A DNA stretch of 64,000 nucleotides from an uncultured Acidobacteriota bacterium (GCA_963729875.1 CAVSPR010000006.1:121368-185367); one strand, 5' to 3'; counted from the stretch's first letter, positions 11,479-27,078 are shown. Numbers and translations are program-made. The notes: generated by a model not told the origin, from the sequence alone.

Positions 11479-12765
<1,287 letters not shown>

Positions 12766-12781
12766 GTGTGCCTCCTGCTGG

Positions 12782-14407
12782 TTACCGGCCCACGCTGCCG
12801 AAGAGCGCGACGAGCTCGTCGTAGGCGGGCAGCGTGAGGAACTCGTTGAAGGTCTCGGACGTCGACATCCGCTCGAAGAGGCTGCGCGCCTCGGCGAACC
12901 GACCGGCATCGTAGCGCTCCTCGCCGAGCGTCGCGCGCAGCTTGCCGAGCTCGTCGTCCACGACGCGCCGGAACCGCTCGGCGGTCAGGGGCTGGCCGTC
13001 GTCGAGGTGCGCGCGGTGGTGGACCCACTGCCACACCTGGGTGCGGGAGATCTCGGCGGTGGCCGCGTCTTCCATGAGGTTGTAGAGCGGCACGCAGCCG
13101 TTCCCCTTGAGCCAGGCCTCGAGGTACTGGACGCCCACCCGGACGTTGTGGCGCAGCCCCGCCTCCGTGCGGGTTCCCTCCGGGACGCGGAGCAGGTCGG
13201 CTTCCGTCACGCTGACGTCCTCGCGCTTCACGTGGATCTGGTTCGCCGTCTTCATGTGGGCGTCGAAGATCTCGAGGGCCACCGGCACGAGGCCGGGGTG
13301 GGCCACCCACGTCCCGTCGTGACCGTCCTGAACCTCGCGGAGCTTGTCCGCGCGCACCTTGGCGAGAGCCTCCTCGCTCGCCCCCGGGTCGTCCTTGATC
13401 GGGATCTGGGCCGCCATCCCGCCCATGGCGTGGACCTCCCGGCGGTGGCAGGTCCTTATGAGCAGCTGCGTGTAGGCCCGCATGCACGGCTGGGTCATGG
13501 TGACCTGCGCGCGGTCCGGGATCACCCACGCGGGGTCGGCGCGCAGGGTCTTGATGAGGCTGAAGATGTAGTCCCACCGACCGCAGTTGAGGCCCGAGGA
13601 GTGCTCGCGCAGCTCCCAGAGGATCTCGTCCATCTCGAAGGCGGCGGGGAGTGTCTCGATGAGGACGGTCGCCTTGACCGTCCCGCGGGGGAGGGAGAGC
13701 CGCTCCTGCGCGGCCACGAAGACGTCGTTCCACAGCCGGGCCTCGAGGTGGGACTGCAGCTTGGGCAGGTAGAAGTACGGCCCGCTGCCCCGCTCGCGCA
13801 GCGCCTGCGCGTTGAGGAAGAGGTAGAGACCGAAGTCGAAGAGGAAGGCCGGGATCGGCGCCCCGTCCCGCTCGACGTGCTTCTCGGGCAGGTGCAGGCC
13901 CCGCGGCCGCACGAGGAGGACGGCCGGCTTCGGGCCGAGGCGGTACTCCTTGCCGGTCTCGGGCGCCGTGAAGGAGATCGTGCGGCGGACCGCATCCTTG
14001 AGGTGCTGGTGGCCGAGGACCACGTTCTCCCAGGTGGGGGAGTTCGAGTCCTCGAAGTCGGCCATGAAGACGCTCGCCCCGGAGTTCAGCGCGTTGATGA
14101 CCATCTTCCGGTCGACGGGGCCGGTGATCTCGACCCTGCGGTCCTGCAGGTCGGGCGGCAGGGGGGCCACCGTCCAGCTCGACTCGCGCACGGAGCGCGT
14201 CTCGGGCAGGAAGTGCGGCCGCTCCCCGGCGTCGAAGCGCCGCTGGCGCTCGCGGCGGCGCTCGAGCAGCTCCTCGCGGCGGGGGGCGAAGTCGCGGACG
14301 AGCCCGGCGACGAAGTCGAGCGCGTCGGGGGTGAGGACGGCCTCGTACTCGGGGCCCAGGGGGCCCCTCACGTGGAGCGCCCCGGCGGCGCGGGAGGTGA
14401 CACCCAT
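12782..14407 (-). CDS. aceB: malate synthase A
   Basis: [57 protein letters not shown]. Confidence 0.97.
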
Positions 14408-14558
14408 CGCGCAGTCCTCCTCTTCTCGCGGTGCCCCGATTGGCGTCACGAGACGTCCTCATGGACTCTCCGGCGGCCGGCCGGAGTCAATGGAGCGAAG
14501 GGATCAGGCGCCGACCCGGCCTGGCTCGGAGGGCGGTCCTCGTTTTTCACCTTGAACG

Positions 14559-14574
14559 TGGCATCCTCGTTGCT
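14559..14574 (+). promoter_or_regulatory. putative sigma54 (-24/-12) promoter
   Basis: TGGCATCCTCGTTGCT = TGGCA-N6-TTGCT with exact GG-N10-GC spacing, 30 nt upstream of ATG 14604. Confidence 0.65.
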
Positions 14575-14603
14575 AAGCTGGTAGGGTCGGAGGTTGGGGG
14601 ATC

Positions 14604-15674
14604 ATGAGCGCTTCGGGGTCGCGAGGTCCGTCGTGGGCCGTCCTGGCCGGCCTCGCACTCGTGCTGGCCGGGTGCGCGACGTCTTCTTCGACCAAGAGCC
14701 CGTCCCTCCCTCAACCCCCCCAGCCGCCGTCCCCGCCCTCGGTCCCGAGCCCCACCTCGCCCTCGGCGACGAAGCCCGAGGCCAAGGGAGAGAAGCAGGG
14801 CGAGAAGGGCGCCACCCAAGGGGAAAAAGGACAGCAAGGGGAGAAAGGCGCCACGCAGGGCGAGAAGGGGCAGCAAGGCGAAAAGGGAGAGCAGGGACAG
14901 CAAGGCGGCGAGGGTCCGAAAACGGGACAGGGCGGAAAGGCGGGCGGGCAATCCCAGGCCAAGGCTGAAGGCGGGGACAAGAGTGCCACCGGTGGAGGAC
15001 AGGCCGGAGCCGCCTCGGCGCCCGGGGAAGGGACGGGTGGCGGAGGAGCGACGACACCCGACGAGCAGCGCGACGCCCTGGACGGGCAGCTCCAGACGTC
15101 GATGACCGAGTTCGACCGGATGCTCCTGAAGGAGCAGAAGGCCCTCGAGGAGAAGCAGCGCAAGGACCCGCTGCCAGACCGCAGCGGCGAGGGCTCGGGC
15201 GGCGCGGCGGCCGGCGCTGGCGGCGCGGGAGGAACGGGGTCGGGCGGAGCGAAGGACGACCGCACGCCGGCCGAACGACGCGCGGACGCCGAAGCGGAGG
15301 CGGCCGAGAAGCAGGCGAAGGCCGGCGCGGCCGGCGAGTCCGGAAAACCCGGTGGTGAGGCCGGAAAGGCGGGCGAGCCTGGCAAGCCGGGAGACGCCGC
15401 CCCGCCCGCGGTCGACACCGCGACCGGGGGCTCCCCCGACGCCGGGCAGCTCGAGGGCGGGGCGACGGTGACCGCGCCGGTCGAGGGCGGGCCCGCCGGC
15501 CCCGGGACCGACTCGACCCCTGTCCCCCGGGACGTGGGAGACGGGAAGGACGACGACGTCGTGGCGCGCCAGCTCCGCGAGGCGGCCATGAAGGAGAAGG
15601 ACCCGGCGATCCGCGAGAAGCTGTGGGAGGAGTACCGGGAGTACAAGAAGAGCGCCGGAAAGGGCGGGAGCTGA
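14604..15674 (+). CDS. lipoprotein with collagen-like/low-complexity linkers and helical C-terminal domain
   Basis: Lipobox LAGC; GEKG-rich repeats; helix LDGQLQTSMTEFDRMLLKEQ; C-terminal DGKDDDVVARQLREAAMKEKDPAIREKLWEEYREYKK. Confidence 0.85.
   Translation: MSASGSRGPSWAVLAGLALVLAGCATSSSTKSPSLPQPPQPPSPPSVPSPTSPSATKPEAKGEKQGEKGATQGEKGQQGEKGATQGEKGQQGEKGEQGQQGGEGPKTGQGGKAGGQSQAKAEGGDKSATGGGQAGAASAPGEGTGGGGATTPDEQRDALDGQLQTSMTEFDRMLLKEQKALEEKQRKDPLPDRSGEGSGGAAAGAGGAGGTGSGGAKDDRTPAERRADAEAEAAEKQAKAGAAGESGKPGGEAGKAGEPGKPGDAAPPAVDTATGGSPDAGQLEGGATVTAPVEGGPAGPGTDSTPVPRDVGDGKDDDVVARQLREAAMKEKDPAIREKLWEEYREYKKSAGKGGS
14785..14915 (+). repeat. intragenic collagen-like GEKG(ATQ/QQ) tandem repeats
   Basis: GEKQ-GEKGATQ-GEKGQQ-GEKGATQ-GEKGQQ-GEKGEQ-GQQ with synonymous variation between units. 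Confidence 0.8.
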
Positions 15675-15683
15675 GGTGATGCG

Positions 15684-16898
15684 ATGACGAGGGGCTTCGG
15701 ATCGGCTCTGCTGGCGGCGCTGTGCCTGGTCGTGCCCGGGGCCGGCGCCGCCGCCGGGGGCGACGAGGCGCTGATCCTCGCGAAGGGCGAGATCCCCGAG
15801 GATCGCCTGATCGACGTGGCGATCGACCTCTTCTCGCCCGGGATCAACGAGGGCGACCCCTCGCCGCTCCTCAAGAAGGGCATCCGGGCCGCGGTGCGCA
15901 AGTCGGAGTCCCGCTACGTCCCGATCCACCTCCGCAACACGCTGCAGTCCAGCGGGCAGTGGGGTGCGGTCCGCGTCGTCCCCGGGGGAGCCGCGTGGGC
16001 CGAGATCCTCGTCACGGGCACGATCGCGAAGTCGAACGGCAAGGACCTCGAGGTCCGGATCACGGCGCGAGACGCGGCCGGCCGCGTCTGGGTGGAGCGC
16101 GACTACAAGCAGAAGGCGGACACCACCGCCTACGCGAAGGACCGGCCCGTCGACGGCCGGGACCCCTTCCAGGGGCTCTACAACCGGGTCGCGAACGACC
16201 TGGTGCAGGCGCGCGACAAGCGCAAGCCGGCGGAGCTCACGGCGGCGAAGGAAGTGGCGCGCCTGCGCTTCGCCGCGAGCATGGCCCCCGATCCCTACGC
16301 GGCCTACGTGGCCACCGACAAGAAGGGCCGCAGCCGCGTGGAGCGGCTCCCGGCCCAGGACGACCCGGTGATGGCCCGCATCACGGCGATCCGGGACCGC
16401 GACCAGATGTTCGTGGACACCCTCAACGAGTACTACGCCGACTTCTACGCCCGCATGGACAAGCCGTACGACGACTGGCGGGCCTACAGCTACACGGAGC
16501 AGGTCGCGCTCGACTCGATCAACCGCGCCTCGACGCTCAAGAAGATCCTGGGGGGCATCGCGATCCTGGGGGGCATCCTGATGGACCCGCAGAACGACCA
16601 TGGCGTCAAGGACATCCTGATCCTCGGGGGCATCGCCGCGGTCCAGGCCGGCTTCGAGGACGGCAAGGAGGGCGGGATCCACAAGGCCGCCCTCACCGAG
16701 CTCGCGGACTCGTTCGAGGGCGAAGTGACGCCTCTCCTGGTGGACGTGGACGGCAAGGTGGTGCAGCTCACCGGCTCGGCGGAAACGCAGTTCGCCCAGT
16801 GGCGCCAGCTGCTGAAGGACATCGTGGCCACGGACGCCCCCCTGCCCGCGGACATCAACCTCGTCCCGATGGCGCCCGCGGAGACCGTGCAGCCCTGA
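15684..16898 (+). CDS. exported hypothetical protein (404 aa)
   Basis: Signal peptide; GAGG SD; VRKSESRYVPIHLRNTLQSSGQWGAVRVVP; Gly-rich hydrophobic segment ILGGIAILGGIL; QFAQWRQLL near the C-terminus. Confidence 0.85.
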   Translation: MTRGFGSALLAALCLVVPGAGAAAGGDEALILAKGEIPEDRLIDVAIDLFSPGINEGDPSPLLKKGIRAAVRKSESRYVPIHLRNTLQSSGQWGAVRVVPGGAAWAEILVTGTIAKSNGKDLEVRITARDAAGRVWVERDYKQKADTTAYAKDRPVDGRDPFQGLYNRVANDLVQARDKRKPAELTAAKEVARLRFAASMAPDPYAAYVATDKKGRSRVERLPAQDDPVMARITAIRDRDQMFVDTLNEYYADFYARMDKPYDDWRAYSYTEQVALDSINRASTLKKILGGIAILGGILMDPQNDHGVKDILILGGIAAVQAGFEDGKEGGIHKAALTELADSFEGEVTPLLVDVDGKVVQLTGSAETQFAQWRQLLKDIVATDAPLPADINLVPMAPAETVQP

Positions 16899-16914
16899 GG
16901 ACACCCGGCTCCCG

Positions 16915-18730
16915 ATGAGCGTCCCCGAGCCCGGGCTCGAGATCCTTCCGGGACTGACCCTCCTCCGACCCCTCGGCCGGGGGGGCATGGGGGAGGCGTG
17001 GCTCGCCCACGACGCCGGGCGGGGCGAGGACGTGGTGGCCAAGGTGCTGCCCGCGGACGCGTCGCCGGACCGGGTCGCGCTGCTGCGGCGCGAGGCCCGC
17101 CTCGTGCGCAAGCTGCAGCACCCGCGCATCGTCCCCGTCTACGGCTTCCGCAGCGGGGAGGCGGCGAGCGCCGTCACGCTGCGCCACATGCGAGGCGGGG
17201 ACGCCTCGCGCCGGCGGGGCGCGACACCACTCGAGGTGGTCCGGCTGGGCCGGGACGTGGCCGACGCCCTCGAGTACCTGCACGGCCTCGGCGTCGTGCA
17301 CCGCGACGTGAAGCCGTCGAACGTCCTCCTCGACGAGGAGGGGCGCGCCCACCTCGCCGACTTCGGCATCGCCGCCGTGCTCGAAGGGGGCGAGGAGGAC
17401 GGCGTGGTGCTGCGGGGAGGGGGATCCCGCGCCAGCATGAGCCCCCAGCAGAGGGCGGGTGCTTCGCCGGCGCCCGCGGACGACCTGTACGCCCTCGGCG
17501 CGCTGCTGTACGAGCTGCTGTCCGGCCGCCCGCCGTTCCCGGCAGAGGCGACCGACGCGGAGTTCCTCGCGCGCGACCCGCCGCCCGTGGCGTCGCCCTT
17601 TCCCGTGCCGGAGTCGCTCCGTGCCCTGGTGGCCGCGCTCCTGGCCCGGTCGCCGGAGGGCCGCCCGCCGTCCGCCGGGGCCGTGAAGGAAGCGCTCGAC
17701 GCGATCGGGTCGCAGCTCGACCGGTCGCCGGCGGCGCCCGTCCGCCCGCCGGTCGCGCTTCACCCTCCGCCTCGCGCGAGCGAAGGGGGCATCTCCGCGC
17801 GCGGGCTCGAGAACCGCCTGGAGCGCCTGCGGTCCCGTCCCCGGACCGGTCTGTTGCCGGGCCAGGTGACGCTTCTGATTGGCCTCGCCGTGGCCGCTCT
17901 CGTGACCGTCGTGTGGCTGCCCCGCTGGGCCCAGGCGCCGACGGCGCCGCCACCCGCGGCGACGCCGTCGGTCGCGCGAGCCGCCCGTCGCGCCTGCGCC
18001 GGCGGTCACGCCCGCCCCGGCCGAGGCCGCGCCGGACCCGCCCGCCGAATCTCCCGCGGTCGCGGCGCCGGTCCCGTCGCGTCCGACCCCGGCCCCGCGC
18101 GTGCCGCCCGCGAGTCTCCTGGCGTCGGCCCCGGCGGTGGCTCCCGTACCCCCGCCCCTGCCCACGCCGGACCGGCAGGCCGAGACGCAGGCCCTCGCCG
18201 GCCACCGCGAGTCGGGCCGCGCCCTCGAGGAGAAGGAAGAGTGGCGGGGCGCCCTCGCCGAGTACGAGGCGGCCCTGGCGGTGGACCCGTTCGTCGCGTT
18301 CGCGGTGGAGGGCAAGGCGCGCGCGGCGGCCCGCGCCGCTCTCGCGGAGGCGCTCGCATTCCACGTCGCGAACCCGCACCGGCTCGCGACCGAGGCCGTG
18401 GGCCGAGAGGCGGCGGTGCTTCTCGAGCGGGCGCGCGACGTCGAGGCGCCGGGGCCGCGCCACCGCGCGCAGGTCGCCGCCCTGGAGGGTGCGCTCGCCC
18501 GGGCCCGCGTGCCCGTCGCGGTCGTCCTCGAGTCGGATGGTCTGACCGAGATCGTGCTGAGCCGGATCGGCCGGCTCGGCACGCTGACGCGCCGCACCGT
18601 CGAGCTGCGGCCGGGGACGTACACGATCGTGGGCTCGAGGCGCGGCTATCGTGACGTGCGGCGTCAGCTCACCGTGGCACCGGGCGGCCCCGCTCCCGTC
18701 GTGAGCGTCCGCTGCGAGGAGGCCATCTGA
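16915..18730 (+). CDS. membrane Ser/Thr kinase with Pro-rich linker, TPR-like helices and C-terminal PEGA-like beta domain; apparent frameshift near 17975
   Basis: LGRGGMGEAW, VAK, HRDVKPSN, DFG; TM LLIGLAVAALVTVVWLP. Sensible sequence continues in the +1 frame (EPPVAPAPAV...GSRRGYRDVR...CEEAI*). Confidence 0.85.
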
Positions 18731-20991
18731 GCACCGTTCGCGTCGAGGAAAGCGGGCACGCCCGGGACCTCGGGCCCACCGAGTTTCCCGTCCCGCTCGG
18801 TGGTCCCGGCTCGGTCGTCCCGGTGGCTTCGAGCGCGGGTCCCCTCGCGTGGCTCGGCCTCGCGGACGGAGACGTCTTCGTCCAGCCGACGCCGGGAAGC
18901 GCCGTCCAGTGCAACGGCATCCGCCTCTCCGCCTCGCACTGGCTCCGCGACGGGGACGTCCTGCGGCTGGGGCCCACCCGCGTGGAGGTCCGGCTCACCG
19001 GCGACGTGCTGCGCCTCGTCGTCGAGACGCTCACGGAGACGAACCCGACCGAGCCCCCCGTCGTCCTCGTGCCGCCGCCGCGGGACGAGCGCCTGCGGGC
19101 GGACGAAGGGCCCGGCCCGACGATCACGCCGATCGGCTACACGCCGCGGCCGGTCGGCAGGAAGGCCGCGTCCCGGCGGCGCGTGAGCCTCGGACGCCTC
19201 GCGCTCGTCGCCCTGCTGGTCGTCGCCGGCGTGGCCGTCGCCCTGCTCTCCCGGGTGGCGGCGGTGGGGGTCGCGGTCGAGCCAACCCCCGAGACGGTTG
19301 CCTTGCGCGGCCGCTGGCCCGCGCTTCGCCTGGGCTCCCGCTTCCTGGCCTTCCCGGGCCCGTACACGCTCGTGGCGGAGAAGGCCGGCTACCGGCGGCT
19401 CGAGGCGGCGGTCGAGGTGACGGGCGAGCCGGGGCAGACCCTGCGGCAAGCCCTCGTGCCACTGCCCGGTCGGCTGACCGTGGACACGGGCGGAGTTGCC
19501 GGCGCGGAAGTGGCGATCGACGAGGCCGTGAGAGGGAGCACCCCGCTCGCCGCGCTCGAAGTGGAGGCGGGGGAGCGCGAGGTCCGGGTGCGCGCCCCGG
19601 GCTACGAGGAGTACCGCTCGCGCGTCGCGGTCGAGGGCCGTGGCGTCGAGCAAACGCTCGCGGTCGCGCTCGTCGCCCTTCCCACCCCCGAGGTCAGGCC
19701 GACCCCGGCGCCGCCGCCCGCCCCGGGGGTCCTCGTGGTGACGAGCGAACCGGCGGGAGCCCGCGTGAGCGTTGACGGCGCCGACATCGGCGAGACGCCC
19801 CTCGAGGTCCGGCTCGAGGCGGGGAAGCCGCACGCCGTGCGCGTCGCCAAGCCGGGCCACGACGACGCGGAGCTCACCGTGCAGCTGCGCGCCGGGGTGA
19901 GGCACGAGGAGGCGGTACGGCTGCAGCCGCAGCTCGGAGAGGTCCGCTTCGCCGCGCGCCCGCCCGACGCGGAGCTCCTGGTGAACGGGGAGCCGAGGGG
20001 CCGCGCCGACCAGACGCTCCGTCTCCTCGCCGTGCCGCACGAGATCGAGATCCGCCGCGAGGGCTACGAGGCCGTGAAGCAGGTGGTCACGCCGCGGCCG
20101 GGGTTCCCGCAGACGGTGAGCGTCGCCCTCAAGAGCCAGGCCCAGGTCCGCGAGGAGAAGACGCCCCGCGTGGCGCGCTCGCCGGAGGGCCACGAGCTGC
20201 GGCTCGTCGACGGCGGGGCATTCAAGCTGGGCGCGTCCCGGCGCGAGCCGGGGCGGCGGGCGAACGAGCCGCTGCGCGACGTCGTCCTCGCCCGCCCGTT
20301 CTACGTGGCGACGCGCGAGGTCTCGAACCTGCAGTTCCGCCGCTTCGAGGCGAGCCACTCGTCCGGGCGGGTGGGAGCGGAGAGCCTCGACGTGGACGAC
20401 CAGCCGGTGGTGCGCGTGAGCTGGCAGCAGGCCGCCGCCTACTGCAACTGGCTGAGCCAGCGCGAGGGCCTGCCGCCCGCCTACGTCCAGAGGGACGGCC
20501 GCCTTGCGCCGGCGGTGCCAGCGACGACGGGCTACCGGCTGCCGACGGAGGCGGAGTGGGAGAGGGTGGCCCGCTACCCCGACACCCGCTCGGCGCTCAA
20601 GTACCCGTGGGGGCAGGCGCTCCCCGTGCCCCCGGGAGCCGGGAACTACGCCGACGCGAAGGCGAAGGGCCTGGTGGCGCTGGTGCTCGACGGCTACGAC
20701 GACGGCTACGCGACGACGGCGCCCGTGCAGGGCTTCCCCGCGAACCCCCTCGGCTTCCTGAACCTGGGGGGCAACGTCGCGGAGTGGGCGCACGACCTGT
20801 ACACGATCACGCCCTCGGTCGAGGGCCAGCCCGCGCGCGACCCGGTGGGGCCGGCGGAGGGCGAGTACCATGTCATCCGCGGCGCGTCGTGGATGCACGC
20901 CACGGTGACGGAGCTGCGCCTGAGCTACCGGGACTACGGCAAGGACCCGCGACCGGACGTGGGCTTCCGCGTCGCGCGCTACGCCGAGTGA
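18727..20991 (+). CDS. FHA-like - TM - PEGA repeats - FGE-sulfatase (SUMF1) domain protein (probable CTG start)
   Basis: CTGA overlap with the kinase stop and GAGGAGG SD; CNGIRL...LRDGDVLRLG FHA-like; TM; PEGA motifs (VTSEPAGARVSVDG...GETP); PVVRVSWQQAAAYCNWLS, RLPTEAEWE, GNVAEW, VIRGASW, GFRVAR. Confidence 0.88.
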   Translation: MSTVRVEESGHARDLGPTEFPVPLGGPGSVVPVASSAGPLAWLGLADGDVFVQPTPGSAVQCNGIRLSASHWLRDGDVLRLGPTRVEVRLTGDVLRLVVETLTETNPTEPPVVLVPPPRDERLRADEGPGPTITPIGYTPRPVGRKAASRRRVSLGRLALVALLVVAGVAVALLSRVAAVGVAVEPTPETVALRGRWPALRLGSRFLAFPGPYTLVAEKAGYRRLEAAVEVTGEPGQTLRQALVPLPGRLTVDTGGVAGAEVAIDEAVRGSTPLAALEVEAGEREVRVRAPGYEEYRSRVAVEGRGVEQTLAVALVALPTPEVRPTPAPPPAPGVLVVTSEPAGARVSVDGADIGETPLEVRLEAGKPHAVRVAKPGHDDAELTVQLRAGVRHEEAVRLQPQLGEVRFAARPPDAELLVNGEPRGRADQTLRLLAVPHEIEIRREGYEAVKQVVTPRPGFPQTVSVALKSQAQVREEKTPRVARSPEGHELRLVDGGAFKLGASRREPGRRANEPLRDVVLARPFYVATREVSNLQFRRFEASHSSGRVGAESLDVDDQPVVRVSWQQAAAYCNWLSQREGLPPAYVQRDGRLAPAVPATTGYRLPTEAEWERVARYPDTRSALKYPWGQALPVPPGAGNYADAKAKGLVALVLDGYDDGYATTAPVQGFPANPLGFLNLGGNVAEWAHDLYTITPSVEGQPARDPVGPAEGEYHVIRGASWMHATVTELRLSYRDYGKDPRPDVGFRVARYAE

Positions 20992-21008
20992 ACTTGGGAG
21001 GTGGACCG

Positions 21009-21224
21009 ATGAGGAGTCTCGTCCGAGCGCTCCTGCTGGGCCTCGCCGCGGTGGCGGCGGCCGCCGTCGCCGGCGACCAGGCGGCGCCACAGGTCCCGCC
21101 CCCGCCCGTGGCGCCGGGCCCCGCGGCGACGCCCGCCCCCGCTCCCCAGGGCGACGTCGAGGACTTCGTCCCTTCCGAGAAGGTGAGCGCGGACGACGCG
21201 GTCGCCTTTCCGGTGGACATCTAG
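21009..21224 (+). CDS. small exported Pro-rich protein with acidic C-terminal motif
   Basis: GGAGG SD; signal peptide; ends DVEDFVPSEKVSADDAVAFPVDI. Confidence 0.8.
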   Translation: MRSLVRALLLGLAAVAAAAVAGDQAAPQVPPPPVAPGPAATPAPAPQGDVEDFVPSEKVSADDAVAFPVDI

Positions 21225-21234
21225 GAGAAAGCGC

Positions 21235-22029
21235 ATGCGCAAGCTCCACGTGGACGACCTCGTCTTCCAGGTGGCGACGCTCGTCCTCTCGTTCCTGATC
21301 ATGCACGTGCCGTACACGCTCGTGGTGCGCCCCAACGCCCGGGCCGTCCTCGAGGAGCAGGCCCGGCAGATGCGGACGAACCCCGAGTACGTCCAGGAGC
21401 GCTCCTGGTGGGTCATCATCAAGGACCCCGAGCAGGAGTGGGAGTTCATCCTGTGCCTGTGGGCGCTCGCCATCATGGGCGCCAAGTGGCGCTCCAGCTC
21501 GCGCGAGCGGCGGCTCCTCGAGAGCGACCTCGTGCCGGTCTCTCCCGGCGCCCGCATCCTGCCCGAGGACGCCCGGGAGTACGCCCGGCAGGTCCAGGCG
21601 CTGCCCGACGCCGACCGCCGGCTGCTCCTGCCGCGCACCGCCCTCGCCGCCCTCAACCGCTTCCGGGCCACGCGCAGCATCCAGGACGCCTCGTCCACCG
21701 CGCGCGAGGTGTGCGCGGCGGAGTCGGACCGGCTCGACTCGGAGCTCGCCATGATCCGATACATCGCCTGGGCGATCCCCTCGATCGGGTTCATCGGCAC
21801 CGTGCGCGGCATCGGCGACGCGCTCACCCAGGCCCACCGCGCGGTGCAGGGGGACATCTCGGGCGTCACCGAGGCCCTCGGGGTGGCCTTCAACTCCACC
21901 TTCATCGCGCTGCTGCTGAGCCTGCTGCTGATGTTCGTGCTGCACCAGCTGCAGCTCAAGCACGAGCGCCAGGTGCTCGACACGGAGAGCTACGTGGACG
22001 AGCGGCTCCTCGCGAACCTGCAGGCCTGA
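21235..22029 (+). CDS. MotA/TolQ/ExbB proton channel family protein
   Basis: AIPSIGFIGTVRGI and ALGVAFNSTFIALLL channel helices plus two N-terminal hydrophobic segments. Confidence 0.92.
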   Translation: MRKLHVDDLVFQVATLVLSFLIMHVPYTLVVRPNARAVLEEQARQMRTNPEYVQERSWWVIIKDPEQEWEFILCLWALAIMGAKWRSSSRERRLLESDLVPVSPGARILPEDAREYARQVQALPDADRRLLLPRTALAALNRFRATRSIQDASSTAREVCAAESDRLDSELAMIRYIAWAIPSIGFIGTVRGIGDALTQAHRAVQGDISGVTEALGVAFNSTFIALLLSLLLMFVLHQLQLKHERQVLDTESYVDERLLANLQA

Positions 22030-22036
22030 GGGCCCC

Positions 22037-23440
22037 TTGTCGCGCGCCCTCGCCCTCGACGTCAGCGACGGCGGCCTCCTCGGGCTGGCCGAAGGCGGGG
22101 CCGTCCTCGGCCCGAGCCCCGGGATGGCACTCGTCGAGGGCGCCCAGCCGCTCTTCGGCGAGGAGGCGCGGCGGCGCTGCCGTCTCAGCCCGCGGCTCGT
22201 GGCGAGCGACTGCTGGGCGCGCCTCGACGGCGAGCCGCTCGGCCCGCCGTTCCCGGAAGGCCTGTCCCGCGCCGACCTCGTCCACGCCCACCTCGAGAGC
22301 CTCTGGAACGGGGTCCGCCGCGGGACCGGCGAGGTCGTGCTGGCCGTGCCCGGCGTCCACGGCGAGGCGGAGCTCGGCCTCCTGCTCGGCATCGCGCAAG
22401 CGCTGGGAATGCCGGTCGTCGGAATGGTGGACGCGGCCGTCGCGGCCGCTGCCTCCGGGTTCCCCGGCGAGCGCCTCCTGCACGTGGACGTCGGTCTGCG
22501 CCACGCCGCGGTCACGGAGATCCGGCAGGGGACGCAGCTCGTGCGCGAGCGGGTGGCGCGCATCGACCGCTGGGGCCAGGACGAGATCGAGGACGCGGAG
22601 ATGCGGGGCGCCGCCGCGGCGTTCGTCCGGCAGGCGCGCTTCGACCCGCTCCACGACGCGGCCTCCGAGCAGGCCCTCTTCGACCGCCTCCCGGCCTGGC
22701 TCGCGACCCTCGCGAAGGAGGGCCGGGCGACGCTGTCGCTGCCCGCCGCCGGGCGCGAGGCCCCTTCGGTCGAGCTTCGACGGGAGGAGGCCTGGGACTG
22801 GACGGCCGTGTACGCGTCCGAGCTGTCGCAGCAGGTGAGCGTCCTGAAGCGGGCCGGCGAGCCGGCCACCGTCCTCGTCTCCGCCCACGCCGCGCGCCTG
22901 CCCGGCCTCGTCGAGCGGATCTCGGCGATCCGCGGCGTGGAGATCGCCCTCCTGCCGGTGCACGCGGCCGCGGCGGGCGCGCTGCGCGAGCGGGGCACGG
23001 TGCGCTCGCCGGCGGGAGCGCTGCGCTTCGTGACCCGGCTCCCGCGGCCGGAGGAGCCGGAAGGGACGGTCGGCGGCCAGGCGGTCATCCTCCCGCCGCG
23101 CCTCGCGGTGACGCCGGTGGCGGGGAGCGGCCGCCGTCCCACCCACGTGCTCCTCGGCTCCGAGGCGCGGGCGATCACGGCCGAGCCGCTCGTCCTCGGC
23201 ACGGCGCCGCCCGAGGGCGCCCGGGGGCTGCGCCTCTCGGGCGAGACGGCCGGCGTCTCCCGCGCGCACTGCCGGCTGTTCGAGGCGGGCGGGACCGTGG
23301 TCCTCGAGGACCTCAGCTCCTGGGGCACCTTCGTGAACGGCGAGCGCGTGGCCGGGCGTGCCGTGGTCGAGGCGGGGGACCGGATCCGCGTGGGCAGCCC
23401 CGGCCTCGAGCTGCTGCTCGTCGTGGCGGCGGAGGGCTAG
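22037..23440 (+). CDS. actin/Hsp70-like ATPase-fold protein with C-terminal FHA domain
   Basis: ALALDVSD, VVLAVPG, GMVDAAVAAA, LLHVDVG (degenerate ASKHA motifs); FHA GVSRAHC...LEDLSSWGTFVNG...GDRIRVG. Confidence 0.75.
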   Translation: MSRALALDVSDGGLLGLAEGGAVLGPSPGMALVEGAQPLFGEEARRRCRLSPRLVASDCWARLDGEPLGPPFPEGLSRADLVHAHLESLWNGVRRGTGEVVLAVPGVHGEAELGLLLGIAQALGMPVVGMVDAAVAAAASGFPGERLLHVDVGLRHAAVTEIRQGTQLVRERVARIDRWGQDEIEDAEMRGAAAAFVRQARFDPLHDAASEQALFDRLPAWLATLAKEGRATLSLPAAGREAPSVELRREEAWDWTAVYASELSQQVSVLKRAGEPATVLVSAHAARLPGLVERISAIRGVEIALLPVHAAAAGALRERGTVRSPAGALRFVTRLPRPEEPEGTVGGQAVILPPRLAVTPVAGSGRRPTHVLLGSEARAITAEPLVLGTAPPEGARGLRLSGETAGVSRAHCRLFEAGGTVVLEDLSSWGTFVNGERVAGRAVVEAGDRIRVGSPGLELLLVVAAEG

Positions 23441-23444
23441 CGAG

Positions 23445-24539
23445 ATGGCCCGCCGCCGCGAGACGAACATCTTCAGCCTCTCGCTCCTCGACTGCATCTG
23501 CTGCGGCTTCGGGGCGCTGATCCTGTTTCACATGATCATCGCCTCCCGCTCGGGGCGGCAGTACGAGAAGGTGACGCAGACGCTGCAGGCCGAGGTGGAC
23601 AAGCGGCAGAAGGAGGTGCTCGAGGGCCAGGAGCGACTCGTGGAGCTGCGCAACTCCTTCCGCGAGATCGAGGACAAGAAGGCGGCGGCCCAGGGGCTCT
23701 CGACGCGTATTCTCGAGACGCTCAAGCAGATCCAGGAGGAGCTCGCGACCTACGACGCGCAGACCGTCGCCCAGCGCGCCCACGTGAACAAGCTGAAGGC
23801 CGACCTCAAGTCGCTCGAGCAGGGGACGAAGCGCCTTTCCGGGGGGACGCCGAGCCAGGAGGTGCCGGGCCGCAACGTGCGTTCCTTCGTGGGCGACGGC
23901 GACCGGCAGTACCTGACCGGCCTCAAGGTGGGCGGCAAGCGCATCTTCATCCTCGTGGACGGCTCGGCCAGCATGCTGGCCGAGGACATCGTGAACGCGG
24001 TGCGGCGGCACCTCTTCCCGCCCGACAGCCGCCTGCGGGCGCCCAAGTGGCGCCACGCGGTGAAGGCCGTGGACTGGCTGGCCGCGCAGCTTCCCCGCGG
24101 GTCGCAGTACCAGCTCTACGTGTTCAACACGACCGCGCGGCCGGTGCTCGGCGGGACGGACGGGGTGTGGCTCGACGCGAAGGACGGCAAGACGCTGGAC
24201 CGGGCGGTGGCCGGGCTGGGAAAGACGGCGCCCGACGGGGGCACGAGCCTCCACCACGCCTTCGCCGCGGCGAAGGCCATGAGCCCGCCGCCCGACAACA
24301 TCATCCTCATCACCGACGGCCTGCCCACCCAGGGCGCGACGCCGCCCAGCCGGCGCACCGTCTCCGGCAAGGAGCGCCTCCGCCACTTCGACCGCGCCCT
24401 CGACGAGCTGCCGCGCGGCGTGCCCGTCAACATCATCCTGTTCCCGATGGAAGGGGACCCCATGGCCACGAGCGCGTTCTGGAAGCTGGCCATGGCGAGC
24501 CGGGGGTCCTTCATGACCCCCTCGAGCGCCTGGCCGTGA
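23445..24539 (+). CDS. N-terminal Asp-TM - coiled coil - VWA protein (1)
   Basis: RRRETNIFSLSLLDCICCGFGALILF; coiled coil; MIDAS LVDGSASM / GGTSL / ITDGLP. Confidence 0.88.
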   Translation: MARRRETNIFSLSLLDCICCGFGALILFHMIIASRSGRQYEKVTQTLQAEVDKRQKEVLEGQERLVELRNSFREIEDKKAAAQGLSTRILETLKQIQEELATYDAQTVAQRAHVNKLKADLKSLEQGTKRLSGGTPSQEVPGRNVRSFVGDGDRQYLTGLKVGGKRIFILVDGSASMLAEDIVNAVRRHLFPPDSRLRAPKWRHAVKAVDWLAAQLPRGSQYQLYVFNTTARPVLGGTDGVWLDAKDGKTLDRAVAGLGKTAPDGGTSLHHAFAAAKAMSPPPDNIILITDGLPTQGATPPSRRTVSGKERLRHFDRALDELPRGVPVNIILFPMEGDPMATSAFWKLAMASRGSFMTPSSAWP

Positions 24540-25549
24540 GGCGGCGGGAGCGGCGGCCGTTCGAGGTGTTCAGCCTCTCGTTCCTCGACGTCGTGTGCTG
24601 CGGCTTCGGGGCGATCATCCTGCTGTTCGTGCTCAACAAGATGGGGGAGCCGGCCGCGCTCGAGCGGGCGGAGCAGGACCTCTCGGGGCTGCTCGCGAAG
24701 CTCGAGGAGGAGCTCGCGGTCGTCCGGGGGGAGACGACCGTCCTCAACCGCAACCTGCGGGGCCGCGAGGAGCAGCTCTCGGAGGAGAGGCTCAAGGTGG
24801 CGCGCCTCCAGGGCGACCTGTCCAGGGTGCAGGGGCAGTTCGCGGCGAGCAAGGAGCTGTCCGAGGTGCAGGACATCATCGCGGGCCGGCTCCTCGCCGC
24901 CCAGCAGGAGCTCTCCGTGGAGATGAAGCGGCTGCAGGCGCAGCAGGAGGAGGTCTACCGGCGTCCGGTCGACGCCCCGGTGGGCGGCATCCCCGTGGAC
25001 AGCGAGTACATCATCTTCGTGATCGACACCTCGGGCAGCATGCAGCGCTTCGCGTGGCGGGCGATGCGGAAGAAGATGGAGGAGGTCCTGAACGCCTACC
25101 CCAAGGTGAAGGGGATGCAGATCCTGAACGACGAGGGCGTCTACATGTTCGGGCACTACGCGGGCAAGTGGATCCCCGACACGCCGGCAAGGCGCCAGGC
25201 CATCCGCGAGCGGCTCTCGGGCTGGAACGCCTTCAGCAACTCCTCGCCGGTCGAGGGCATCGAGATCGCGATCAAGACGTTCTGGTCGGCGGACAAGAAG
25301 ATCAGCATCTACTACTTCGGCGACGAGTTCACCGGCGACTCGATCGACGAGGTGCTCGACCAGGTCGACCGCCTGAACCGCCGCGACGCCTCCGGCCAGA
25401 GGAAGGTGCGCATCCACGCCGTCGGCTTCCCGACGCTCTTCTCGCAGTCGCAGTTCCCCGAGCACACCGGCACCCGCTTCTCGATGCTGATGCGCCTCCT
25501 CTGCGAGCGGAACGGCGGCGCCTTCGTCGGCCTCAACAGCACCGACTAG
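24536..25549 (+). CDS. N-terminal Asp-TM - coiled coil - VWA protein (2)
   Basis: GTGA overlap; FEVFSLSFLDVVCCGFGAIILLFVL; coiled coil; VIDTSGSM, FGDEF, RIHAVGF. Confidence 0.88.
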   Translation: MRRRERRPFEVFSLSFLDVVCCGFGAIILLFVLNKMGEPAALERAEQDLSGLLAKLEEELAVVRGETTVLNRNLRGREEQLSEERLKVARLQGDLSRVQGQFAASKELSEVQDIIAGRLLAAQQELSVEMKRLQAQQEEVYRRPVDAPVGGIPVDSEYIIFVIDTSGSMQRFAWRAMRKKMEEVLNAYPKVKGMQILNDEGVYMFGHYAGKWIPDTPARRQAIRERLSGWNAFSNSSPVEGIEIAIKTFWSADKKISIYYFGDEFTGDSIDEVLDQVDRLNRRDASGQRKVRIHAVGFPTLFSQSQFPEHTGTRFSMLMRLLCERNGGAFVGLNSTD

Positions 25550-25603
25550 GGGTCAGGTCTTGAATTGTGACGTCGGGCCCGGGTGGCCTATGCTCGGAGC
25601 ACC

Positions 25604-26317
25604 ATGGCACGAAGGCTGGTCCTGATCAGCACGTCCACCGTGTTCGGAACCCGGTACCTCGAGCACGCCTTCCCCGAGCTGCGCGACGCGCTGGGAGCGG
25701 TCACCCGGGTTCTCTTCGTCCCCCACGCCCTCCAGGACCGCGCCGGCTACGCGGCCAAGGCTCGGGGCGCCTTCGAGGAGATGGGCTACGGCCTCGACTC
25801 GCTGCACGAGGCGGCCGACCCCCGGCGGGCGATCGAGGCGGCCGAAGCCGTCTTCTGCGGGGGCGGGAACACGTTCCGCCTCCTGAAGGCCCTGTGCGAG
25901 ATGGACGCGCTCGCGGTGATCCGCCGACGGGTGGCCGAGGGCATGGTCTACTCGGGGGCCAGCGCCGGCTCCAACCTCGCCTGCCCGACGATCCGGACCA
26001 CGAACGACATGCCGATCGTCGAGCCCCCCTCGTTCGACGCCCTCGGCCTCGTCTCCTTCCAGATCAACCCCCACTACGTCGACCCCGTTGCCGGCTCCAC
26101 GCACATGGGGGAGACACGGGAGACGCGCATCCGCGAGTTCCACGAGGAGAACGAGACCCCGGTGGCCGGCCTGCGCGAGGGGGCGATCCTGCGGGTGGAA
26201 GGGGACTCGGTCCTCCTCAAGGGCGTCGCCGGCGCCCGCATCTTCCGCCGGGGCCAGGAGCCGGTGGAGGTGTCGCCGGTCAGCGAGATCGGCCCGCTGC
26301 TGGCCGGCAAGGCCTGA
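25604..26317 (+). CDS. pepE: dipeptidase E (peptidase S51)
   Basis: GGGNTFRLL, GASAGSN, TIRTTNDMPIV, QINPHY, HMGETRETRIREF. Confidence 0.95.
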   Translation: MARRLVLISTSTVFGTRYLEHAFPELRDALGAVTRVLFVPHALQDRAGYAAKARGAFEEMGYGLDSLHEAADPRRAIEAAEAVFCGGGNTFRLLKALCEMDALAVIRRRVAEGMVYSGASAGSNLACPTIRTTNDMPIVEPPSFDALGLVSFQINPHYVDPVAGSTHMGETRETRIREFHEENETPVAGLREGAILRVEGDSVLLKGVAGARIFRRGQEPVEVSPVSEIGPLLAGKA

Positions 26318-26416: not shown

Positions 26417-26740
26417 ATGGGCTACGGAACCATCCGAATCAGTGACACCGCCCGCGGGACGCTCCGCCAGCTGGCCCGCGCCGAGGGCAAGTCGATGCTG
26501 GCCCTCGTGGACGAGGCGGTCGAGACCTTGCGTCGGCAACGCTTCCTGGAGCAGGTGAACGCTGCCTACGCGACCCTGCGCAGCGACCCCCGCGCCTGGG
26601 AGGAGATCGAGTCCGAGCGCCGCGACTGGGACGTCACCCTCGGCGACGGGCTGGTCGCCGAGGAGAGCCGGGCTCCCTACGGGAAGCGGGAACGTTCCGG
26701 GAGCGGATCGCGCGGGGGCCGGCGGGGAAAGCGATCGTGA
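26417..26740 (+). CDS. putative RHH antitoxin (MazE-like)
   Basis: TIRISDTARGTLRQLARAEGKSMLALVDEAVE; ERRDWDVTLGDGL; GTGA overlap with the toxin. Confidence 0.85.
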   Translation: MGYGTIRISDTARGTLRQLARAEGKSMLALVDEAVETLRRQRFLEQVNAAYATLRSDPRAWEEIESERRDWDVTLGDGLVAEESRAPYGKRERSGSGSRGGRRGKRS

Positions 26741-27078
26741 ACCCCCCGGCTCGAGGCGAGGTGTGGCTGGCCGAGCTCAGTCCGACGCGGGGCCATGAGC
26801 AGGCCGGTCGGCGACCGGTCCTCGTGGTGTCCGAGGACCTGTTCAACCGGGGTCCGGCGGGTCTCGTGATCGTGCTGCCGATGACCACGAGGTGGCGCGG
26901 CGTTCCGAGCCACGTGCCTCTCGATCCCCCGGAGGGCGGCGTCGAGGAGCGCTCGGCGGTGCTGTGCGAGGCCGTGCGGTCCGTCTCGGTCGAGCGCCTG
27001 ATCGAGCGGTGGGGCGCGGTCGGACGCCCGACGATGGCCGCCGTGGAAGACCGGCTGCGCATCCTGCTGCGACTCTGA
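26737..27078 (+). CDS. mazF: PemK/MazF-family toxin
   Basis: RGEVWLAELSPTRGHEQAGRRPVLVVS...VLPMTT...CEAVRSVS. Confidence 0.92.
   Translation: MNPPARGEVWLAELSPTRGHEQAGRRPVLVVSEDLFNRGPAGLVIVLPMTTRWRGVPSHVPLDPPEGGVEERSAVLCEAVRSVSVERLIERWGAVGRPTMAAVEDRLRILLRL

Follow-up and report, generated by a model that had tools for sequence, protein, structure and literature searches.

Ion-driven motors of the 5:2 type power flagella, Ton uptake, Tol-Pal division, gliding with type IX secretion and Zorya defence, and each new output module found on such a motor represents a new route of energy delivery to the outer envelope. In the present study we analyzed a nine-gene operon, g1-g2-g3-g4-sm-g5-g6-g7-g8, carried by a 64,000-nucleotide stretch of DNA from an uncultured Acidobacteriota bacterium (GCA_963729875.1 CAVSPR010000006.1:121368-185367); this whole stretch is called the window below. 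The operon had been singled out earlier as a candidate undescribed envelope machine driven by the proton motive force (hereafter the original prediction). It encodes a subunit of the MotA/TolQ/ExbB family, g5, together with two paralogous proteins, g7 and g8, each bearing an Asp in a hydrophobic helix and a VWA head. We consider it probable that the operon encodes a self-contained, ion-flow-driven envelope machine, a force transducer of the 5:2 type.

Organization of the operon

The window has a G+C content of 72%, and the names attached to near-identical proteins point to Vicinamibacteria, a group within the Acidobacteriota. Genes were placed by frame plots of third-position G+C (GC3) together with lists of open reading frames (ORFs). 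By these means nine genes were found to fill positions 14604 to 25549 on the + strand, to which all coordinates below refer unless indicated. The successive spacers from g1 to g8, sm included, are 9, 16, -4, 17, 10, 7, 4 and -4 nt. The earlier description of nine co-directional genes, either overlapping or at most 17 nt apart, was therefore correct, the largest of the eight spacers being 17 nt and two of them being overlaps of 4 nt.

A sigma54-type -24/-12 motif, TGGCAT-N5-TTGCT, lies at 14559-14574, 30 nt upstream of the ATG of g1. It is the sole match in the window, was found in 0 of 100 shuffled sequences, and the genome carries an rpoN gene. In relatives the region preceding g1 yielded no such motif (0 of 42 loci, many being truncated at the 10-kb flank), nor was there one at the matching place in seven acidobacterial or other close loci (L013-L016, L019, L021 and L022; loci are designated by L numbers). 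Since many loci end at the 10-kb flank, this null result is weak evidence. Of the predicted sigma54-type promoter, the motif itself is thus real in the window, but it has no counterpart upstream of g1 in the relatives searched.

The candidate motor core

The g5 gene (21235-22029) encodes a 264-residue protein that belongs to PF01618 (MotA_ExbB) in Pfam, with an E-value of 5.2e-14 and 52.5 bits against a cut-off of 22.9, and the operon does contain the MotA/TolQ/ExbB member that had been called. Two of its threonines, T189 and T222, are invariant in 62 sequences (alignment A7). The g5 profile aligns to the solved TolQ structure 8odt over positions 148-256 (E 6.5e-4), and T189 and T222 coincide with its GTV and ...AT positions, in the two channel helices; we take these to be the essential threonines of TolQ. 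From hydropathy alone g5 would have four hydrophobic segments, as against three in ExbB and TolQ, to which its sequence match is weak. The TolQ threonines are also described as essential residues in the available part of a recent study (PMC12204202).

The g7 (23445-24539; Pfam and alignment A4) and g8 (24536-25549; Pfam and alignments A1 and A5) genes are paralogs. In both products an Arg-rich tail (RR in g7) and a TolR/ExbD-like hydrophobic helix with an Asp are followed by some 100 residues of coiled coil and by a VWA domain. The Asp of this helix, D16 in g7 and D18 in g8, is invariant in 54 sequences of each protein (A4 and A5), so that the two Asp-bearing transmembrane VWA subunits proposed originally are both found. 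Also invariant in both heads are the DxSxS residues of the metal ion-dependent adhesion site (MIDAS), namely D172-S174-S176 in g7 and D164-S166-S168 in g8 (A4 and A5). The VWA_2 model of Pfam, whose cut-off is 27 bits, matches g7 above that value (3.5e-7, 31.2 bits) and g8 below it (5.4e-5, 24.2 bits). Comparison of g8 with solved structures gave only coiled-coil noise and a faint match to an integrin I-domain (E 0.14). The placement of the Asp is the same in the three ExbD proteins of the genome (…INVTPLVDVVLVLL…) and in g7 and g8 (…FSLSFLDVVCCGFG…).

Neither ExbD (PF02472) nor TonB was found in the operon with Pfam. The only other PF01618 genes of the genome are two, located in ordinary ExbB-ExbD-TonB and TonB-ExbB-ExbD-ExbD loci (G000:C4:1184000-1196000 and G000:C5:122000-134000, L099 and L100). 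The ExbB of the C4 locus is 437 residues long, with a long N-terminal extension.

Occurrence in other genomes

Within the phylum we used a sample of 401 genomes, including that of the window. A g8 match was obtained in 7 of the 401, counting the window's own genome and one weak partial match. Strong matches were present in 5 of the 400 other genomes, which belong to five families and each carry both paralogs, and the order g1-g2-g3-g4-sm-g5-g6-g7-g8 is complete in all five.

The g8 family comprises 1588, 821 and 331 clusters (50% identity) at E-values of at most 1e-3, 1e-10 and 1e-30, respectively, and its distant members are annotated as 'hypothetical' or 'VWA domain-containing protein'. When one genome per species was scanned, at least 222 relatives were obtained, the best 80 of which were taken for locus comparison. 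These 80 loci come from Acidobacteriota, Desulfobacterota, many Gammaproteobacteria, one Verrucomicrobia metagenome-assembled genome (MAG) and one Rhodospirillales MAG; the gammaproteobacterial carriers include Steroidobacteraceae, Halieaceae, Woeseiaceae, Microbulbifer and Seongchinamella. Among cultured, non-pathogenic bacteria, Microbulbifer echini JCM 30400 (L089) and Seongchinamella unica GH4-78 (L083) have the complete operon, and a kinase-bearing version occurs in a Steroidobacteraceae isolate. The gene order is maintained across the best 80 loci from Acidobacteriota, Desulfobacterota, Gammaproteobacteria and others. Co-conservation of the gene order, for which the original prediction had suggested a neighbourhood search, is thus strong, both in the five acidobacterial genomes and in the best 80 loci, which span several phyla.

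For gene counts we used the 54 loci whose sequence extends 9.9 kb or more upstream of g8, a gene being counted if it was in order and on the same strand. Present in these loci were g7 (53), g5 (52), g4 (50), the C-terminal part of g3 (50), g2 (49), g6 (48), g1 (41) and the kinase part of g3 (23). Because related genomes are not independent, these counts, like the variant and co-occurrence counts below, are descriptive only. Reduced loci also occur: L054 has g8 alone and L075 g7-g8 alone, while L084 and L096 have sm-g5-g6-g7-g8 with no g1-g4 nearby. In 33 relatives, nearly all gammaproteobacterial, a tenth gene directly follows g8 (within about 260 nt and on the same strand). Its product is a lipoprotein of 200-325 residues (for example L045:11023-11997), apart from a truncated copy of 135 residues in L037, and has no homolog in the window (tblastn E > 0.4).

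A small secreted protein and its modelled partner

Between g4 and g5 lies sm (21009-21224), an ORF preceded by a ribosome-binding site and encoding a secreted protein of 71 residues, in which a P/A-rich linker connects the signal peptide to a conserved C-terminal motif that ends ...FVPSEKVSADDAVAFPVDI-COOH. Both g4 and g5 are present in 63 loci, every one of which has an ORF at this place. In 58 of the 63 it terminates in the motif [FY]xP[ST]Exx[IV]xxDxx[VI]x[FY]PxDI-COOH, and 55 of these 58 ORFs have a hydrophobic run near the N-terminus, the linker being variable. In one close acidobacterial relative the gap between g4 and g5 is 2.5 kb and holds an ORF of 640 residues (L019:4144-6066).

A complex was predicted from the g7 head (residues 135-364), the g8 head (residues 125-337) and, as partner, the last 40 residues of sm, each chain being entered as an alignment. 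The sm peptide was placed on the g7 head with a score of 0.85, versus 0.37 for the best of three controls; this score is the model's own confidence, obtained in a three-chain job with custom alignments, unlike the calibration set, where this mark was reached by 58 of the 80 solved complexes and by 2 of the 110 mismatched pairs. Three runs agreed in at least 86% of contacts, with a predicted local distance difference test value (pLDDT) of at least 61 for the partner, and the score dropped to 0.00 when the g7 head was replaced. The modelled interface comprises g7 residues 174-176, 179-187, 265-267, 295-296, 301-311 and 336-340 and residues 21-40 of the sm 40-mer. In the model the penultimate Asp of sm (position 39 of the 40-mer) contacts g7 residues 175, 265 and 266, and the g7 residues in contact with sm flank the invariant MIDAS positions D172, S174, S176, G266 and T295. 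The model supports binding of the C-terminal peptide of sm on the MIDAS face of the g7 VWA head, which makes sm a candidate ligand.

The g1 and g2 proteins

The first gene of the operon, g1 (14604-15674), encodes on translation a lipoprotein in which the lipobox LAGC is followed by a long linker of low complexity and a conserved C-terminus. Its C-terminal 45 or so residues (DDDVVARQLREAA...LWEEYREYKK) show 54-78% identity across phyla. A lipobox was detected in 15 of 23 complete relatives by a regular expression, which is an undercount, and neither Pfam nor NCBIfam gave a match to g1.

The g2 gene (15684-16898), defined by translation, a structural model and alignment A3, encodes a secreted protein of 404 residues. 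An LxGC lipobox is present in all 44 relatives of A3 and missing in the window and in L013, which is of the same genus; in this genus g2 may be soluble in the periplasm. In the g2 model (pLDDT 82) an alpha/beta domain is followed by a long helical hairpin, and a small domain lies at the C-terminus. The best matches of the model in the PDB are weak, being PelC, LptE and the N-domain of TolB (E ~1e-3, TM-score 0.5), with the faint resemblance lying in the alpha/beta domain. We retained this borderline fold likeness as a lead and rejected it as an identity. Nothing usable came from Pfam or NCBIfam, and the Atlas gave no named family.

Kinase, FGE-fold and Hsp70-like proteins

As read with Pfam, g3 (16915-18730) comprises a Ser/Thr kinase, a transmembrane helix, a P/A-rich linker and a periplasmic part with TPR and a PEGA-like domain. 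The kinase matches Pkinase at 3.8e-34, with its HRD and DFG motifs and VAKV lysine all intact. Within the P/A-rich linker, near 17940-18000, the gene passes into another reading frame, the kinase and transmembrane helix lying in the frame of 16915 and the TPR/PEGA-like part in frame 17906-18730. As relatives carry g3 in one uninterrupted frame (such as L013:2136-3950, of 605 residues, in the same genus), there is a frameshift or an assembly error near 17940-18000. Public contigs across 17600-18400 contained only the exact pieces 17600-17882 and 18041-18191, none of which spans the frame change, and the best public sequence sets share at most 0.32 of sampled words with the window. Because the genome is in only 11 contigs, an assembly indel and a genuine pseudogene are equally possible.

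Custom hidden Markov models (HMMs) allowed both g3 and g4 to be scored in 52 loci, 21 of which have the kinase domain. In the kinase-less loci g3 is a TPR and PEGA-like protein of about 515 residues. At least one locus scored as kinase-less, L076, has the kinase in a separate frame. The kinase co-occurs with the FHA-like domain of g4, found in 20 of the 21 kinase-bearing loci versus 8 of the 31 kinase-less ones (23 of 31 are without it). The machine had been proposed to have its own Thr-phosphorylation switch; a kinase gene with intact motifs is indeed part of the operon, but it is frameshifted here, its kinase domain occurs in only 21 of the 52 relatives scored, and such a switch is thus not universal.

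The next gene, g4 (18727-20991; Pfam and hhalign), encodes a cytoplasmic FHA-like N-domain and a transmembrane helix, with three PEGA domains and an FGE-sulfatase fold on the periplasmic side. No ATG, GTG or TTG is available upstream of 18823, and the conserved N-terminus starts at the CTG at 18727, in a CTGA overlap with the stop codon of g3. Most relatives have TTGA, GTGA or ATGA at this place, and L019 and L042 have CTGA as well. The N-domain matches the FHA profile of g6 in a profile-profile comparison (hhalign probability 95.5%, E 1.5e-8). Since the FHA model of Pfam matched only 1 of 33 members, the FHA-like assignment rests on this comparison.

The remainder of g4 matches FGE-sulfatase (3.1e-42) and PEGA (6.4e-39) in Pfam. 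Its last 70 residues, presumably the place of the catalytic cysteines of formylglycine-generating enzyme (FGE), have no Cys in 50 of 59 homologs, and the tail in the window (...RGASWMHATVTELRLSYR...) has none either. Membership of g4 among formylglycine-generating enzymes was rejected, as the C-terminal catalytic cysteine pair is lacking. Because of the same lack in 50 of 59 homologs, the FGE fold of g4 is probably not an enzyme, in agreement with the PEGA/FGE protein of non-enzymatic type expected at the outset.

The product of g6 (22037-23440; model, Foldseek and Pfam) is a cytoplasmic protein with an ASKHA domain, resembling the nucleotide-binding domain (NBD) of Hsp70, and a C-terminal FHA domain (Pfam, 5.8e-10). 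The g6 model (pLDDT 92.2) retrieved DnaK/Hsp70 NBDs in Foldseek with E-values of 1e-15 to 3.6e-17 and a target TM-score of ~0.7, which together with the FHA match upholds the actin fold plus FHA read originally. The FHA domain was found in 42 of 47 loci with g6 by a custom HMM, and in 33 of 58 members by Pfam.

Relation to described systems

The closest precedent is the set of 'TPH-vWA' motors proposed from synteny and AlphaFold 3 models in PMC12204202 (Mol Biol Evol 2025, section 8, Fig. 4c-d), the one paper linking vWA proteins with TolQ-like motors that full-text searches brought up. According to the available part of that study, vWA proteins that are tethered by a transmembrane helix and lack the SHLS motif usually occur as heterologous pairs and tightly co-occur with tolQ homologs, with no tolR or exbD; their Asp-bearing helix would be inserted into a pentamer, facing a ring of Thr. 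The motors were reported there mainly from Proteobacteria and also from Verrucomicrobia, and their function was not assigned. The operon has the same composition, in that a tolQ-like gene is accompanied by a heterologous pair of vWA genes for Asp-helix proteins while tolR/exbD is absent, so that the same core appears to have been read independently as a motor, and the two families are likely the same in sequence. No record of Idiomarina, the seed genus of PMC12204202, was among the best 80 of our at least 222 relatives. The part of the paper available to us does not mention a kinase, FHA domains, FGE/PEGA, an Hsp70-like protein, lipoproteins, a small ligand or Acidobacteriota; in its main text 'kinase' occurs 0 times and 'FHA' only as FhaC. 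The qualification 'undescribed' in the original prediction was thus only partly right: the core had already been proposed in silico in PMC12204202, while the other genes of the operon are not mentioned in the portion consulted. As far as full-text searches reach, the full nine-gene composition and the candidate ligand are not in print.

With ExbB-ExbD-TonB and TolQ-TolR-TolA the operon shares the PF01618 subunit, the two channel threonines and a partner helix with an Asp near its cytoplasmic end, and force transmission to the outer membrane would be expected alike. Unlike these systems, it has no ExbD-type periplasmic domain, TonB or TolA, and its presumed axle bears a coiled coil and a VWA domain.

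GldL-GldM with GldK/GldJ likewise combine a 5:2-type motor, a far-reaching periplasmic axle and a non-enzymatic FGE-fold protein, and GldK is the best NCBIfam match of g4 (5.2e-28, 98.5 bits versus a cut-off of 350). Unlike the GldK/GldJ lipoproteins, g4 is anchored in the inner membrane by its transmembrane helix and has PEGA repeats. No GldL, GldM or GldN homologs were found among the operon proteins with Pfam and NCBIfam. With GldK below its equivalog cut-off and GldL, GldM and GldN missing, a type IX secretion/gliding core was rejected.

In the PpkA-Fha1-TagR pathway, as in the operon, a membrane-bound Ser/Thr kinase is combined in the envelope with FHA proteins, lipoproteins, a VWA domain and a periplasmic protein of the FGE fold. 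It differs in that the kinase is missing from most relatives of the operon and that genes of the type VI secretion system (T6SS) are absent, the TagH model of NCBIfam reaching 20 bits versus a cut-off of 120. No PP2C phosphatase was found in the operon with Pfam.

Zorya ZorAB are likewise a MotA-like subunit with an Asp-helix partner outside flagella, and PADLOC gives a weak ZorA match to g5 (7.5e-5, 19.9 bits). Unlike Zorya, the operon has no ZorC/D/E and no long ZorA tail (g5 has 264 residues), and VWA replaces the peptidoglycan-binding domain. As this 19.9-bit ZorA match was the sole match to a Zorya model in PADLOC, Zorya membership was rejected. A MoxR-VWA/Bat aerotolerance system was rejected as well, no operon protein having an AAA+ match in Pfam or NCBIfam. 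Domain and PADLOC scans agree with the earlier statement that TonB, TonB-dependent receptor, T6SS, type IX secretion and Zorya C/D/E genes are absent here.

Interpretation

In the machine that we consider probable, g5 would form a pentameric ring in the inner membrane, judging from family resemblance, with g7 and g8 as a central heterodimer, each inserting its TolR/ExbD-like Asp helix into the ring. Proton flow along the Asp/Thr path would turn ring and axle against each other. The output of the axle would be periplasmic, a coiled-coil stalk and a VWA head with an intact MIDAS; g7 and g8 carry no peptidoglycan-binding or TonB-binding domain. The g7 head would hold the C-terminal peptide of sm, with the penultimate Asp of sm against the MIDAS residues. 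On the outer-membrane side would be g1, with its long tether and conserved acidic C-terminal motif, together with g2, and we infer that the periplasmic heads act on lipoprotein-anchored partners. Finally, g3, g4 and g6 may gate or position the motor, as a layer that is optional across lineages. Candidate uses of the force are tethering or remodelling of the outer membrane, export, adhesion and surface movement.

Several observations weigh against this interpretation. The g5 protein is a distant member of its family, the TolQ alignment (E 6.5e-4) covering its C-terminal 110 residues only and the NCBIfam TolQ and ExbB scores being far under their cut-offs. The g7 and g8 helices match no ExbD model of Pfam and resemble ExbD only in motif. 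The 5:2 assembly with a g7/g8 heterodimer as axle is suggested by analogy, from which, together with the available part of PMC12204202, the stoichiometry is taken. The score of the sm-g7 model is one that the predictor assigned to itself, and the Pfam FHA model passes over nearly all g4 N-domains. The kinase is missing in 31 of the 52 scorable loci and frameshifted in the window, and g6 is missing in 6 of the 54; for these reasons the control layer is dispensable. The patchy distribution in the phylum (5 of 400) would also fit an accessory or conflict system.

A more specific version, which we put forward only tentatively, is a proton-driven trans-envelope device in which one MIDAS head grips the sm peptide and the other the acidic tail of g1, tethered at the outer membrane, and rotation winds, pulls or releases these tethers, with the Hsp70-fold/FHA protein as a cytoplasmic clutch and the kinase, of eukaryotic type, as a switch in some lineages. 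If true, a rotary motor axle ending in two different integrin-like MIDAS heads would be a new device design.

Among the alternatives, the one that survives best, although we think it unlikely, is an envelope signalling module like TagQRST-PpkA-Fha1, sensing through threonine phosphorylation, in which the TolQ-like protein would be only an ion channel or a scaffold and no force would be generated. The kinase looks active (HRD, DFG and the catalytic Lys), it co-occurs with the FHA-like domain of g4, and two FHA-type domains, an FGE-fold periplasmic domain and lipoproteins complete the resemblance to the PpkA/TagR pathway. The most widely kept parts, however, are g5, g7, g8 and sm and not the kinase; L084 and L096 retain just sm-g5-g6-g7-g8, the Asp and Thr residues that define a motor are invariant, and the surrounding genes encode no target machine of the T6SS kind.

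Less probable still is a Zorya-type anti-phage or conflict system that would sense perturbation of the envelope and pass the signal inward via the kinase, FHA and the Hsp70-like protein. Its patchiness within Acidobacteriota, the weak PADLOC ZorA match of g5 (7.5e-5, 19.9 bits) and a MazEF-like pair 0.9 kb downstream are in its favour, and conflict systems often contain kinase, FHA and vWA domains (PMC7159879, in the part available). Yet no PADLOC model matches g1, g2, g4, sm, g6 or g8, the kinase matches are generic, and neither Pfam nor NCBIfam found a nuclease or other effector domain in the operon. The flanks are glyoxylate-shunt genes and a peptidase and are not conserved, and MotA, ExbB and TolQ go unmentioned in the available part of PMC7159879, which surveys vWA conflict systems.

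An ordinary Ton/Tol variant with its ExbD/TolR and TonB/TolA partners encoded elsewhere, as might be suspected from PF01618 and the ExbB/TolQ annotation of g5 at the source, is most improbable, since the two other PF01618 genes of the genome each adjoin their own ExbD (one or two copies) and TonB, the Asp helix is part of g7 and g8 themselves, which occur with g5 in 52 of 54 loci, and the operon and its flanks have no TonB-dependent receptor.

A motor with VWA heads would concern many bacteria, the g8 family being large (331 clusters at E-values of at most 1e-30) and spread over several phyla, including the abundant soil Vicinamibacteria and marine Gammaproteobacteria. No experimental study of the g8 family was found in the full-text literature searched. 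What is defined here is a nine-gene set, joined in 33 relatives by a tenth gene, for a lipoprotein. A candidate ligand of one head and a phosphorylation layer that is optional are defined as well. With a defined gene set, a candidate ligand and cultured carriers, function is directly testable.

Neighbouring genes

None of the flanking genes is kept next to the operon in relatives. Upstream, at 11479-14449 on the - strand and divergent from the operon, are the genes of the glyoxylate shunt, encoding isocitrate lyase and malate synthase. Downstream, 33 nt from g8 and on the same strand, is a peptidase S51 gene (25583-26317; 4e-60), which accompanies the operon in no relative. It is followed, 0.9 kb downstream of the operon, by two small overlapping genes at 26417-27078 that form a MazEF-like pair. 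The second of these encodes a PemK/MazF-like toxin (6.6e-29), and the first, which has no Pfam match, is probably the antitoxin.

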